From: an uncultured Verrucomicrobiae bacterium
GTDB lineage: Bacteria > Verrucomicrobiota > Verrucomicrobiia > Limisphaerales > Palsa-1400
Direction: 5' to 3'
Length of the DNA stretch: 64,000 nucleotides
Assembly: GCA_963825315.1 (NCBI GenBank)
Contig: CAWGST010000001.1
Coordinates: 1,877,460-1,941,459 of the forward strand
In this document: in pieces, positions 43,114 to 48,334 of the stretch
How positions within the stretch are numbered: position 1 is the stretch's first letter
Layout of the letters: the number at the start of each line of letters is the position of its first letter
Notes under the pieces: model-generated
Told to the model about the DNA's origin: nothing
The model's input: only the letters and a program-made list of their open reading frames with translations
The model's database searches: none
Program-made: the position numbers and the translations under genes

Positions 43114-44136
43114 GTGGTTGCCAGCGTTGATCCGTCTGCGACAAAACTAAATCGCCACCCCAACAAACGCACGTCCAGTCGAGTTCAAGCCCTTGGCACT
43201 CGAATTGCCCCGGCCTACGTGAGCTACACCCACCGGATGAAAGCCTTCATTGAAGATCTCTACGGAGTGATGACCGTGAGCGATCTGGCGGCCATCACCG
43301 CGCTGGGCTGGGATACAGTCAAGAATATCGTCAAGGCCAAGCTGGAGCGCCGGGATGGGCATCCCCGGCTCAAGGGCCTGCGGTATTTGTCCATCGACGA
43401 GATTTACGTCGGGCGCTCCAGGAAATTCTACACGCTGGTCATCGACCTGGAGAGCGGTCGGATCGTCTGGGTAGCGCCGGGCAAGGGGGCCGACGCGCTG
43501 CGCAGGTTCTGGCGGGCCTTGCGCCTGAGCAAAGCCAGGATCAAGGGAGTGGCCATGGATATGAGCGCCGCCTACTGGGCGGCGGTGCTGGACCAGTTGC
43601 CCAATGCGGCCATCGTCTTTGACCGGTTCCACCTCACCAAGCTGATGAACGAGAAAATCGATGACCTGCGCCGGCAGATGGTCTCCGAAGCCAGCGGGCT
43701 GATGAAGAAAACGGTCAAGGGCTTGCGCTACTTGCTGTTGATGCGCCGCGAAAACGTGGACCAGGACAAGCTGCCCCGCCTGGACGAGGCGCTCAAACAC
43801 AACGAGCCTCTGCTGACCGCCTACCTGCTCAAAGAAGCCCTGATCCTGCTCTGGGAGCAATCTTCCTACGCGCGCATGAGGTCCTTTTTCCGGCAATGGT
43901 GCGATTGGGCCCTGGACTCGGGCATCCGGCAGATGATGCAAATGGCCAAGAGTCTTCTCCTTCATAGAAGCGGGATGCTTTCTTGGTGGAAACACCGGAT
44001 CAACAACGGCCGCATGGAGGGCATCAACAATAAGGTTAAAACACTCCTGCGCCAAACCTACGGTCTGCGCGACGAACGCTACTTCGTTCTTAGACTCTTC
44101 GGCCTTCATCATTCCAGACACGAACTTCTCGGATGA
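43114..44136 (+). pseudogene. ISL3-family transposase, N-terminally truncated or degenerate
   Basis: 340-aa ORF with LSIDEIYVGRSRKFYTLVIDLESGRIVWV, GVAMDMSAAYW, FDRFHLTKL and NNGRMEGINNKVKTL. The zinc-finger N-terminus is absent and the element ends are not identified. Confidence 0.7.
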
Positions 44137-44730
44137 ACCCAAGATTCTGGCTGACTTGGCCCATTGCGTCGCCAGGCTACCAGGTTCGCCGTTGGAAATG
44201 TTGTTCTAGTATGGAACAAAGTTTTCTTGCCGGAATCGAAGAATCGGGGCAGGAATGTGCGCCGAGCAAAAAACCGTGCCTGACGTTTTCTGCAAGCACA
44301 GCCAGAGTTTTGACCCGCCGTCGCTCAGAAGCTTCCGCCTTCGTTGAAACTACGGACAAGATGGCGGGCCGGGCATGATTCTCCATGGATCAAAATCCGC
44401 TCCCCATGTTCTCAGTTTTTTTTGCGCCTCTTGCGCTTTTTCGCGGCTGTGTCTTTGTATTCCATCCTGCGGCCCTCTCGATATATTCAAAGCACGAGAG
44501 AAAAAGCCTTTGCCCGCAGAACACGGGTATGTGGTTTGTCAAAGGGTAAATCTTTAAATTCTTCATTTTTGTTTTAAGCTGATCTTGCGGTTGGGAGGAT
44601 AGGGCTCTGCAGGAGTGCAACCTGAGCGCCCAATCGTCCGTGGATTGCGGATGCATCCGCTCCTGGCGCTCCCGTTCCGGGCGCGCCGGGAGTTTCCTGC
44701 GCAAGCCATGGTCCAAAGCGATAAACTCAC

Positions 44731-46002
44731 TCATTTTAAGCCGGTGGTTGTGGAGGCGGGCGTGAATCCTGGGCGCAAGAAACCGTCCTTGTCGCGGGTG
44801 TAAACCGTCTGGGCCAAGACATAGGTTCTCCCGTCCTTGAGCAAGCCATAGGTTTCTTCTCTGAAAACTTTTCGTGTTTTGCCCAGGGTTTTAAGCCCCC
44901 TGGCTCCGACGCTGGCCATGATTTTTCCCACCTTGAGGGCCAGGCGCTCGTCGATTTCTTCCAGGGGAGTCCAGCGGCCCATCATCAAATACCAAACGGC
45001 CACAGCCAGTTTGCGAGCCATGGCGCCGACGGTGAGGTTGATTGAGCTTTTGCGCCGCAGCAGCTTTTTACCCCATTGCGCCAGAGGATTTTTGGAACAA
45101 CGCAGGACGGCTTGGGCGGCCTCGACCAACAGGCTGCGCAAGTCTTTGCGGCCATGGCCGGCGATGCCGCCGCTCCATTGGCCTTCACCGCTGTCGTCAA
45201 AGGCGGGGTTCAGCCCGATATACTTGACGAGTTTCTTGGGGTGGGCAAAGCGGTGGATGTCGCCGATGAGAGCGCCGAGGGCAAAGGCCACCATTTCCCG
45301 GACGCCGCAGAGCCGCACAATGGACAATAGCTGCGGGTCGGAGAGGACTTCCTGGGCGATCAAACTGCGCCAATGGGACCGCTGTTCATCGGCATGGCGC
45401 AATTCCATGAGCATCCCCTCAATGACCTGCCATTGGCGGGGAGACCAGGGGTGGGTTTTGCGCAGCAGTTCTTCAGCCGCCTTGCCTTTGGCCAAAGGCG
45501 TGCCTTTTTGCAGGCGCACTCCGTTGTCGCTCAGATAAGAGAGGAGGCGGTTGCGCATTTGGGTGCTGCGCTTGACGGCCTTGCGGTGGGCATGGAACCA
45601 GTCGCGCCGTTCCTGGGTTTTGACGTCGGGCACCCAGACGGTCTTGGCCGTCCCGGCCAGATAAGCCTTGCCGATGCGCACAGCGCTGATCTTGTCATTA
45701 TTGGCGTGGGCTTCCTTGAGCTTGCCCATCTGGCAACTCTCCAGGACCAGGGCCTTTCGATCCAGCGCCGCCAAGGTGCGCACGACTTGGAAGCTGTTGC
45801 CAGAAGCTTCCAAGACAAAGAGGTCTTGGGCCGTGGTGTGCTTTTTGGCCCAACCGGCGAGTTGGGCCAATGGGACTTGGTTGAAAATCTTCTCCGTCAC
45901 GGCTGCGGCCGGGGTGGGGCCCTGGAGCAGCGCGGCGGTGAAGGTGTCCGGATGACAATCAAAGCCGATCACCCGTGGAAGGAAGTTTGCATTTTTGTCC
46001 AT
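44731..46002 (-). CDS. IS110-family (DEDD) transposase/recombinase
   Basis: 423 aa from the ATG at 46002. N-terminal blocks are VIGFDCHPDTF, VLEASGNS and NDKISAVRIGK. The Transposase_20 block reads LCGVREMVAFALGALIGDIHRFAHPKKLVKYIGLNP. Confidence 0.85.
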   Translation of the reverse strand: MDKNANFLPRVIGFDCHPDTFTAALLQGPTPAAAVTEKIFNQVPLAQLAGWAKKHTTAQDLFVLEASGNSFQVVRTLAALDRKALVLESCQMGKLKEAHANNDKISAVRIGKAYLAGTAKTVWVPDVKTQERRDWFHAHRKAVKRSTQMRNRLLSYLSDNGVRLQKGTPLAKGKAAEELLRKTHPWSPRQWQVIEGMLMELRHADEQRSHWRSLIAQEVLSDPQLLSIVRLCGVREMVAFALGALIGDIHRFAHPKKLVKYIGLNPAFDDSGEGQWSGGIAGHGRKDLRSLLVEAAQAVLRCSKNPLAQWGKKLLRRKSSINLTVGAMARKLAVAVWYLMMGRWTPLEEIDERLALKVGKIMASVGARGLKTLGKTRKVFREETYGLLKDGRTYVLAQTVYTRDKDGFLRPGFTPASTTTGLK

Positions 46003-46195
46003 TTTAGTTCTTTCTTTTAGTTGTGCAGGCGGACGGAAACGGGTCAGGCGATCACATGCACTCAGGTATGCGGGGCGGTCCCCATGTAGGTGCTTTTCGC
46101 CGGTGCTCATTCACAGAAGCGGAGATTGAACTCCAAGCGTATTCTCCGAGCATCTCCCGTAATCCACCTGCTGGTTAGCAATCCAACAGGTCCTT

Positions 46196-46206
<11 letters not shown>
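46003..46206 (-). ncRNA. Candidate IS110 bridge/seek RNA in the recombinase leader (boundaries uncertain)
   Basis: About 200 nt with no credible ORF upstream of the recombinase. 46029-46040 is perfectly complementary to 46207-46218. The family is known to encode a guide ncRNA in this position. Confidence 0.3.
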
Positions 46207-46669
<463 letters not shown>

Positions 46670-46724
46670 GCCTGTCCAACTCCGTTTTAATCCGTGTCTA
46701 TCCGGTTTTATCCGTGGTTCAACC

Positions 46725-47141
46725 GTGCCTGACGTTTTCTCCAAAGCCAAGCGGTCGGAGGTGATGGCCCGCATCCGCTCGCGCGGCAACAGGGACACCG
46801 AACTGGCCTTGATGCGGCTCTTTCGACGGCATGGCCTCTCCGGCTGGCGGCGGCATCAGCCCGTTTTTGGCCGGCCTGATTTTGTCTTCATAAAAGCCAG
46901 GGTGGCGGTGTTCGTGGATGGCTGTTTCTGGCATGGCTGCCCGAAACATTCCACTGTCCCGGCAACCAATCGCGCCTTCTGGAAACGCAAACTCACGGCC
47001 AACAAGCTCCGTGATCGCCTGGTCAACCAGACCTTGCGCCGGAAAGGTTGGCAGGTGGTGAGAATTTGGGAGCACGATTTGCGGAAGCCGGCCCCCTCCC
47101 TGCGGCGGATTCAAAAGGAAATGCTAAAGGCTGAATGCTAA
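46725..47141 (+). CDS. vsr: Very-short-patch repair endonuclease
   Basis: Contains RSEVMARIRSRGNRDTELALMRLFRRHGL..GRPDFVF..VAVFVDGCFWHGCP..TNRAFWKRKL..N..RD. A GTG start at 46725 is assumed. Confidence 0.85.
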   Translation: MPDVFSKAKRSEVMARIRSRGNRDTELALMRLFRRHGLSGWRRHQPVFGRPDFVFIKARVAVFVDGCFWHGCPKHSTVPATNRAFWKRKLTANKLRDRLVNQTLRRKGWQVVRIWEHDLRKPAPSLRRIQKEMLKAEC

Positions 47142-47389
47142 AGGCTAAAGTTCCCGTCTTTCCCAAGTGCCTTGCTGACAACATGTTATGATTATTCAAA
47201 ATGTCGAAACTTTCACGGTTTTTTCCGGGGCGGAGTTTCTTGAGAAATTTAAAACACCTGCCCCGAAAACTTTCGGGGTTGCAATTTGCAAGCTGTTAAA
47301 TGGTCATTCGTGCTTCGTCATTAGTCATTTTTTCTCCACGGTCATTCGTGCTTGGACATTGGCCATTCTTTCCCTATGATCTGATTCTC

Positions 47390-48334
47390 ATGCAACGCGA
47401 TACGATCACTGTTGAACGGTTTTATACCGGCGAAGCCCGGAGTCTCGAATTGAAATTGGTGGCCGGCGCCAGCGGCCTCAAGCGCATCATCCGCGAACCC
47501 ACGGTCAACCGGCCCGGCTTGGCCCTGGCCGGCTTCACCCGCTATTTTGCCAGCAAACGTTTGCAGGTCATTGGCAATGCCGAAACGTGGTTCTTGAAAA
47601 CGTTGTCCCCCGCCGAACGGGCCAAGCGTTATGCCAATTTGTTTTCCTTCAAAATCCCCGCCGTCGTTTTCTCGCGCGATATTCACCCGGACAAGGCCTT
47701 GCTGCGCGCCGCCGAATTGGCGCAGGTGCCCATTTTCGTCACCCCGATGATTACGATGAAGTTCATCAACCTGGCCACCCTGGCCCTGGAAATGTTGTTC
47801 GCCCCGCGCAGCAGCGAACTCGGCAGCATGGTCGATATTCTCGGCGTCGGCGTCATTATTCGCGGCGAGAGCGGCATCGGCAAAAGTGAAAGCGTCCTGG
47901 CCCTGATCGAACGCGGCTACAGTTTGGTTTCCGACGACATCACCCGCGTCACGCTGCTGGACGGGCGGGAAATCATCGGCACCAGCGCCGAGGTCACGCG
48001 CAATCACATGGAAGTGCGCGGCATTGGCATCATCAATGTCGCTTCCATGTTTGGGGTCCGGAGCATTCGCAGCCAGAAGGGGGTTGATTTGGTCATCACC
48101 TTGAAGGCCTGGGACGATGTGCCCGATGTGGAACGCATCGGCATGGAACAGGAATTTGTGAAAATCCTGGGCATCGAGGTCCCGCACATCACCATCCCCG
48201 TGCGGCCCGGACGCGATCTGGCCCGGTTGATCGAGGTGGCCGCTTTTCAAATCAAGTTGAAATCTTCCGGCCAGAACCCGGCCAAGGAATTGAACGACCG
48301 GCTGATCGCGCAAATGGCCGGCAACATTCAGTGA
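47390..48334 (+). CDS. hprK: HPr kinase/phosphorylase
   Basis: Has the P-loop GESGIGKSE and the signature MEVRGIGIINV. The ATG at 47390 lies within ORF 47300-48334. Confidence 0.9.
   Translation: MQRDTITVERFYTGEARSLELKLVAGASGLKRIIREPTVNRPGLALAGFTRYFASKRLQVIGNAETWFLKTLSPAERAKRYANLFSFKIPAVVFSRDIHPDKALLRAAELAQVPIFVTPMITMKFINLATLALEMLFAPRSSELGSMVDILGVGVIIRGESGIGKSESVLALIERGYSLVSDDITRVTLLDGREIIGTSAEVTRNHMEVRGIGIINVASMFGVRSIRSQKGVDLVITLKAWDDVPDVERIGMEQEFVKILGIEVPHITIPVRPGRDLARLIEVAAFQIKLKSSGQNPAKELNDRLIAQMAGNIQ

Follow-up and report, generated by a model that had tools for sequence, protein, structure and literature searches.

An IS110-family element of a Verrucomicrobiota genome and the probable bridge RNA encoded in its left end

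The element, its recombinase and its target repeat

The window analysed here is a stretch of 64,000 nucleotides from an uncultured Verrucomicrobiae bacterium (GenBank assembly GCA_963825315.1, contig CAWGST010000001.1, positions 1,877,460 to 1,941,459 of the forward strand). It contains a complete insertion sequence (IS) of the IS110 family, which lies on the minus strand at 44526-46276 and is 1,751 bp long including one copy of its CG core. The left end (LE) of the element is the high-coordinate end. The recombinase (transposase, tnp) gene runs on the minus strand from an ATG at 46002 to a stop at 44731 and encodes 423 amino acids. A 274-nt non-coding leader lies between the left end and the gene, and a 205-nt non-coding region lies between the gene and the right end (RE). 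The element is very probably an intact and recently active IS whose left end encodes a bridge RNA of ~200 nt. A sequence-only reading of the window had proposed that the non-coding leader of this IS110-family element encodes a bridge or seekRNA, and this general idea is supported here by covariation in the helices of the RNA and between its guides and the flanks of the element.

The ends of the element follow from a DNA search of its own genome (5.46 Mb, 6 contigs). The search revealed five additional full-length copies (L002-L006) that are 98.6-99.6% identical, one copy without the leader (L007), two LE fragments (L008 and L015), and many short matches to the sequence on both sides of the IS. 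The copies begin with GGTATGTGG (44526) and finish with ...CACATACCCTCG (46276), and the flanks diverge outside these bases. Uninterrupted target sites, in which both flanks of the window copy are joined, were found at seven loci (L010-L014, L016, and L018). At the empty site L012 the two flank alignments share exactly 2 bases, CG (locus positions 1501-1502). CG is found at both junctions of the IS, at 46275-46276 for the LE and at 44524-44525 for the RE, and it occurs once in the empty sites with no conventional target duplication, which is the pattern of a site-specific insertion. Across relatives the junction core is CG or TG. The copy boundaries, the empty sites, and the shared 2-nt overlap therefore place the element at 44526-46276. 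The sequence-only reading had left the ends undelimited and had suggested that other copies would define the ends and the core, as the same-genome copies and empty sites now do. It had also reported no inverted repeats; in fact, the element features 17-nt subterminal inverted repeats that are 94% complementary (LE arm 46257-46273, RE arm 44525-44541) and are kept in relatives.

The target is a REP-like (repetitive extragenic palindromic) repeat of ~110 nt, and the IS occupies one of its arms. One half of the repeat is found at 46277-46344 and the other at 44488-44525, and an inverted repeat of the target (I2) joins 44510-44525 with 46325-46340. Three unoccupied sites matching YCTGYGTRTTCTG are still present in the genome. 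Two loci of this genome show further features. The copy L007 (G000:C1:1115022-1116542) has lost the whole leader and begins 18 nt before the ATG. The empty repeat L018 (G000:C1:1761132-1761237) reads ...gaacacgGGTATGgacgcag at the usual insertion point, where GGTATG corresponds to the first six bases of the IS at the RE end; either a footprint of excision or chance may account for this.

The recombinase features a DEDD-type RuvC-like N-terminal domain plus a C-terminal one carrying an SG serine, the two domains of the IS110 family. It matches PF02371 with an E value of 1.4e-15 and NF033542, the 'IS110 family RNA-guided transposase' model, with 166 bits against a cut-off of 140, and PF01548 reaches 23.7 bits, under the cut-off of 29. 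A family profile aligns with both domains of the IS621 transposase (8wt6) at an E value of 4e-15, and the SG serine is aligned in the segment GLNPAFDDSG against GLTPRRYESG of IS621. These matches confirm the sequence-only assignment of an IS110-family recombinase on the minus strand with its ATG at 46002. A single-sequence search matched IS621 weakly (E 0.003). The IS621 recombinase has 326 amino acids compared with 423 here. Of the DEDD tetrad, D15, E65, and D103 are invariant.

Homologous elements were collected at several distances. The protein search gave 2,807 homologues at E <= 1e-30 among 8,000 candidates scored. In a genome search, one genome from the same genus carried four copies of an element with 75% identity, and the same order contributed a relative with 60% identity. 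A contig scan added 27 loci, mostly from Verrucomicrobiota assemblies, and a metagenome scan added 80 further loci with 73-97% identity. The clade is found mostly in Verrucomicrobiota-labelled assemblies (~100 loci collected, with hundreds more matched). The closest annotated plasmid relatives are ~30% identical and are labelled just 'IS110 family transposase', so that they do not settle the placement in a group. The leader alignment used below consists of 71 non-identical leaders from relatives at 73-97% amino-acid identity and from some at 54-60%.

A 12-bp helix in a structured leader

The leader features two 12-mers, 46029-46040 (GCGGACGGAAAC) and 46207-46218 (GTTTCCGTCCGC), which are 100% complementary over 12 nt and are 166 nt apart. 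The sequence-only reading had noticed this exact reverse-complement pair, and an inverted-repeat search recovers it as pair I4. The chance expectation for perfect 12-mer pairs in a 274-nt leader is estimated as ~0.002 (274^2/2/4^12). Two explanations had been offered for the pair. In the first, the 12-mers form the closing stem of a ~190-nt RNA that ends 27 nt before the ATG. In the second, 46207-46218 is target DNA and 46029-46040 is a guide that pairs with the flank at the junction, and this explanation draws on the exact 12-nt complementarity and on a neighbouring BrnT-like reading frame that is not traceable upstream of ~46330. However, 46207-46218 sits 58 nt inside the IS, and the full copies and the LE fragments L008 and L015 are identical out to 46276 whatever their flank. 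Additionally, relatives from other genomes retain both arms with compensatory changes, and the empty sites do not contain the 46207-46218 segment. Both 12-mers lie inside the IS; the pairing of a guide with the flank is therefore refuted as their explanation, and its probability is negligible. A 10-nt likeness between GCGGACGGAAAC and one variant of the target (L011) was judged to be a chance match and was dropped.

The closing stem is supported by folding and by covariation. The minimum-energy fold of the 274-nt leader has -102 kcal/mol with z = -3.67 and places the 12-mer pair within a long closing stem, so that the folding check suggested in the sequence-only reading agrees with its first explanation. 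RNAalifold on the 71 leaders determined an outer helix that comprises GCAG/CUGC and the 12-mer region, a hairpin named P2, and two modules, each of which consists of a stem, an internal loop, and a hairpin. The structured core of the candidate bridge RNA (46025-46223, minus strand) is bounded by the two strands of the outer helix, with GCAG on its 5' side and CUGC on its 3' side. When the consensus structure was written out explicitly for the 71 leaders, 96-97% of the cells were paired and 11 pairs were changed on both sides, a combination of pairing and two-sided changes that was reached by 0/500 shuffles. Sliding the 3' partner by 1-3 columns reduced the pairing to 36-46%.

The 12-bp helix itself, with its 5' arm at 46207-46218 and its 3' arm at 46029-46040 on the minus strand (alignment columns 48-59 with 235-248), shows compensatory changes at 6 of its 12 pairs. 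These are columns 48/248 (G-C 18, A-U 14), 49/247 (C-G 64, U-A 2, G-C 1), 52/244 (A-U 61, G-C 3), 55/240 (G-C 68, A-U 1), 56/239 (A-U 63, G-C 1), and 58/237 (A-U 56, G-U 11, G-C 1, U-G 1). At the inner end of the closing helix the pairings GGUCA/UGACC and CGGG/CCCG score alike. The non-coding end of the element features a structured RNA with helices that are backed by covariation, as is characteristic of bridge and seekRNAs. On these alignments, the 12-mer pair is an internal helix of the putative bridge RNA and not a guide/target duplex.

Guide segments that covary with the target flanks

The leader was searched for segments that could form pairs with target or donor DNA on either of its strands, with positions counted from 46276 in the sense of the transposase. 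The first of the two modules, the candidate target-binding module (46104-46152, minus strand), consists of the stem UGCUC/GAGCA, an internal loop, and an inner hairpin, GGAG-loop-CUCC, in which A-U to G-C changes occur in 3 sequences. The candidate right target guide (RTG, 46137-46146, minus strand) is located on the 5' side of the internal loop and pairs with the right flank at 44515-44525 in a 9-bp duplex of 8 Watson-Crick pairs and 1 G-U pair. The candidate left target guide (LTG, 46112-46119, minus strand) is located on the 3' side of the loop and pairs with the left flank at 46275-46282 in an 8-bp duplex of 6 Watson-Crick pairs and 2 G-U pairs. Each of the two candidates terminates exactly on the core. 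In the alignment of the 71 sequences the RTG patch is the most variable 8-column stretch of a leader that is conserved elsewhere, with 1.33 bits against a mean of 0.40, and the LTG patch ranks fourth with 0.84 bits.

The two patches follow the flanks of their own elements. The ends of the relatives were placed by their conserved termini and both patches were extracted, which gave a test set of 55 elements whose guide pairs are distinct and for which the two flanks are available. The RTG scored 6.64 against the core and right target of its own element and 4.33 ± 0.17 against shuffled flanks, and the LTG scored 5.60 against its own left target and core and 4.71 ± 0.14 against shuffled ones; in each case 0/10,000 permutations reached the value for the own flank, although shared ancestry and similar TCYGYG-type targets among the relatives mean that these permutation p-values overstate independence. 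The comparison of guide loops with the flanks of other copies, which the sequence-only reading had put forward as a check, is in this way answered in favour of guides. Individual elements show the same agreement. The reverse complement of the RTG is GGTTCATCTA in L046, where the right flank reads CGTTCATCTG, and it is identical to the right flank in L082 (CGGCACAAA in both) and in L048 (TGGTGACG in both). The core letters of the LTG are also related to the junction. LTGs with CG as core letters have a CG left junction in 22 of 22 cases, and those with UG have a CG junction in 36 cases and a TG junction in 30 (Fisher p = 2e-5), a pattern that fits U-G wobble pairing. The leader features two loop segments that complement opposite strands of the target, overlap at the core, and covary with the target, as is expected of a bridge RNA.

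The targets of the clade were compared across ~75 related loci (L023-L139; window positions 44500-44525 and 46277-46300). They feature TCYGYG repeated every ~10 nt; the IS is always located after the second TCYGYG unit, and a conserved GYGG is found 6-9 nt into the right flank. A constant CUCG lies directly 5' of the RTG and its pairing with GYGG is possible, but both are conserved, so that such pairing is inseparable from conservation. The copies L003 (G000:C1:799150-800915) and L004 (C6:126187-127955) carry window-type guides and have CG as the core at the left junction and TG at the right. They may be partial-match insertions in which a mismatch between the donor and target cores was left unresolved (compare bioRxiv 10.64898/2026.08.31.748434).

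A natural change of target is seen within the genome itself. Compared with the window copy, L005 and L006 have 25 differences over 1,751 positions, with 14 in the 274-nt leader, 3 in the 1,272-nt coding sequence, and 8 in the downstream non-coding region. Seven of the 14 leader differences are located in the two guide patches and 1 is located in the hairpin loop between them. The guides of L005 and L006 (AGAACUACGC and UUUUAGUG) fit their own repeat, ATTTGG-CG-TGGTTCGCGG, where the window-type repeat has TGTTCTGCGG. This variant is the strongest single argument that the loops would determine the target, and it constitutes indirect, evolutionary evidence that a change in the loops shifts the target. 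An orphan left end, L008 (G000:C1:2839624-2840089), retains the first ~130 nt of tnp and carries L005-type guides in a window-type repeat.

The leader could instead be a cis-acting structure in the 5' untranslated region (5'-UTR) that acts on translation or stability of the recombinase mRNA, with the protein reading the REP-like repeat to choose the target. The end of the structure lies 27 nt ahead of the ATG with no terminator after it, so that the structure is probably co-transcribed with the gene, and the conserved TCYGYG periodicity and the GYGG in the targets are features that a protein could read. However, a 5'-UTR structure gives no reason to expect a pair of loop patches of which one follows the left flank and the other the right, on opposite strands, up to a meeting point at the core. 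Nor does it lead one to expect that the genome also contains a retargeted variant whose differences are mainly in the guide patches. This explanation is very unlikely, and a bridge RNA is preferred for the leader.

Possible donor pairing, proposed mechanism and relation to known systems

The second module of the candidate bridge RNA (46047-46101, minus strand) resembles a donor-binding loop. It consists of the stems GGCGA/UCGCC and GCAC/GUGC and a hairpin, GGGG-ACCG-CCCC, and columns 176/222 switch between A-U and C-G in 21-22 sequences. The module contains a segment resembling a left donor guide, CCGCAUACCUGAG (46061-46073, minus strand; leader positions 204-216), whose sense is that of the RE end CCACATACC followed by the core and AG. 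Over 13 nt, this segment is complementary to the bottom strand of CCACATACC-CG-AG, which is the RE-core-LE junction of a circularised element.

The downstream non-coding region (44526-44730, minus strand) comprises 205 nt and is conserved and structured, with a fold z of -3.1. It is kept in most relatives and is ~60 nt long in a sister subclade (L033, L045). The possibility that the functional guide RNA resides here, in the manner of IS1111, and that the upstream structure serves another role is judged highly improbable. The long subterminal inverted repeats are an IS1111 trait, the region is conserved and structured, and the differences between the two IS variants of this genome include a cluster at IS positions 1595-1605. 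However, just ~60 nt of the region are left in close relatives in which the upstream leader and the guides are retained (L033, L045, and others), and the patches that track the flanks lie upstream. The variable cluster forms a hairpin's apical loop; it was considered as a second guide and was rejected, as it complements the target of neither variant. No flank-matching patch was seen in the downstream region 44526-44730. The upstream leader is retained as the site of the guides.

The region also contains TTGACA (44537-44542). In the circular junction this RE motif would be followed after 17 nt by TATGTG of the LE (46265-46270), an arrangement that fails the -10 criteria of the promoter scan. 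A circle-junction promoter of the form TTGACA-17 nt-TATGTG with a weak -10 is offered as a suggestion, and junction promoters are known in the IS110/IS1111 family (PMC11187229).

In the proposed mechanism, which follows the family, a bridge RNA of ~200 nt would be made from the 274-nt left end upstream of the recombinase gene and would be bound by the recombinase. The two 12-mers are the strands of the long helix that closes this RNA, with hairpin P2 and the two modules inside. The first module would act as the target-binding loop with the RTG and the LTG, and these guides would direct insertion at CG or TG inside a REP-like repeat of TCYGYG units ~10 nt apart. The published bridge-RNA model includes the core in both guides (PMC11208160). 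The second module carries CAUACCUG(AG), which corresponds to the RE end with the core and the beginning of the LE, and it would hold the circularised donor junction. Recombination would proceed via a circular RE-core-LE intermediate that would read ...CACATACC-YG-AGGGTATG....

Several observations weigh against this interpretation, in addition to the shared ancestry of the tested elements. The fourth position of the DEDD tetrad is Ser106 (window 45685-45696, codons 103-106) in the motif NNDKISA, so that not all four residues are acidic. Relatives at 30% identity have TDKIDA and IS621 has KTDTVDA at this position, and judged from the alignment only, serine is found in at least 107 of 120 close homologues; the many near-identical copies nevertheless argue that the enzyme is probably active despite Ser106. 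A search of 43500-47500 against Rfam 15 with E values up to 10 found no relevant family; Rfam may lack a model for bridge RNAs. Because the donor module and the ends of the IS are both nearly invariant, a single 13-nt match is the basis for the donor pairing. A search for the right donor guide found none: neither CCUACAU, on the 5' strand of the second module, nor GCAUGUG pairs convincingly with the donor or covaries with it. CAUACC also complements the top strand of the LE (GGTATG) because the IS ends are inverted repeats, which makes the donor assignment ambiguous; as a speculation, this one segment could read both ends of the IS. The promoter scan found no sigma-70-like promoter in the integrated copy. 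Finally, the guides fit poorly to the right flanks of L003 and L004 and to both flanks of L044.

The element shares several features with IS621 of the IS110 group (Durrant et al. 2024, PMC11208160; Hiraizumi et al. 2024, PMC11208158). The RNA is located in the left end upstream of the recombinase, the recombinase has a DEDD-type domain and a serine domain, to which the family profile aligns as described above, the RNA has two modules of stem, internal loop, and hairpin, and insertion occurs into REP-like repeats. It differs from IS621 in that the order of the loop guides is reversed, with the RTG 5' of the LTG, and in that both modules lie within a long outer helix of 17-25 bp. Additionally, the core is YG instead of CT, the subterminal inverted repeats are 15-17 bp instead of 2-3 bp, and the fourth acidic residue is replaced by serine.

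The IS1111 elements with seekRNAs (ISEc11, ISPa11, and ISKpn4; Siddiquee et al. 2024, PMC11187229) feature subterminal inverted repeats of similar length, the motif GL-P----SG, and specific insertion into repeated palindromic sequences. They also have the guide that complements the top strand 5' of the guide that complements the bottom strand (PMC11187229), as found here; the comparison of guide order assumes that the direction of tnp sets the target orientation in both papers. In IS1111 elements, however, the RNA is normally located downstream of tnp and the transposase has 330-350 amino acids (PMC11187229), whereas here the guides are upstream and the recombinase has 423 amino acids, within the 395-455 of the IS110 subgroup that contains IS110 itself (PMC11187229). 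Measured against the narrow sense of IS110, the upstream guides agree, and the short or absent inverted repeats and the bottom-strand-guide-first order do not; measured against IS1111, the inverted repeats (7-17 bp) and the guide order agree, and the upstream guides and the length of 423 amino acids do not. Such a mixed arrangement is unusual but not unprecedented, since Siddiquee et al. list exceptions, such as ISMtsp17, whose non-coding region is upstream, and ISHvo10 and ISAcp5, in which both sides have long regions (PMC11187229). The IS110-family element ISPpu10 likewise inserts into one conserved multi-copy intergenic palindromic repeat, and it is reported to need a hairpin in the target DNA besides guide complementarity (bioRxiv 10.64898/2026.03.19.712850).

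Taken jointly, these traits raise the tentative and rather doubtful proposal of a distinct subgroup of bridge recombinases between IS110 and IS1111. Its traits may be a left-end bridge RNA combined with long subterminal inverted repeats and a guide order of the IS1111 type, one long helix around both modules, a DED-S active site, and a single donor guide, CAUACC. The mechanism is already known, and the element is a good new example of it and not a new mechanism; analyses of this type already cover thousands of IS110 elements. Bridge recombinases provide programmable DNA insertion without double-strand breaks, and well-delimited natural examples are useful. This element supplies exact ends, a core, a target repeat, a consensus RNA structure, and guide assignments from 55 distinct guide pairs. 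The mixture of IS110 and IS1111 features and the serine at the fourth catalytic position could inform the relation of the two groups.

The annotation of the surrounding region is also changed, as the boundaries of the element are corrected and the BrnT-like gene is found to be a 3' remnant beside the REP-like repeat and not at the IS junction. The BrnT-like frame (46330-46458, plus strand) retains ~42 C-terminal residues, and upstream it runs into the repeat. The sequence-only reading had traced this frame back to ~46200; it is open just from ~46330, and the open reading frame (ORF) with its start at 46196 shares its frame with the downstream 75-aa gene and not with BrnT. The overlapping 75-aa ORF (46442-46669, plus strand), which may be antitoxin-like, gave no match to Pfam or NCBIfam models at the thresholds applied. 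The other neighbours are an ISL3-family transposase (PF01610, PF13542) at 43114-44136 on the plus strand and a Vsr-like mismatch endonuclease (PF03852) at 46605-47141 on the plus strand, and the surroundings of the IS are dense in insertion sequences.

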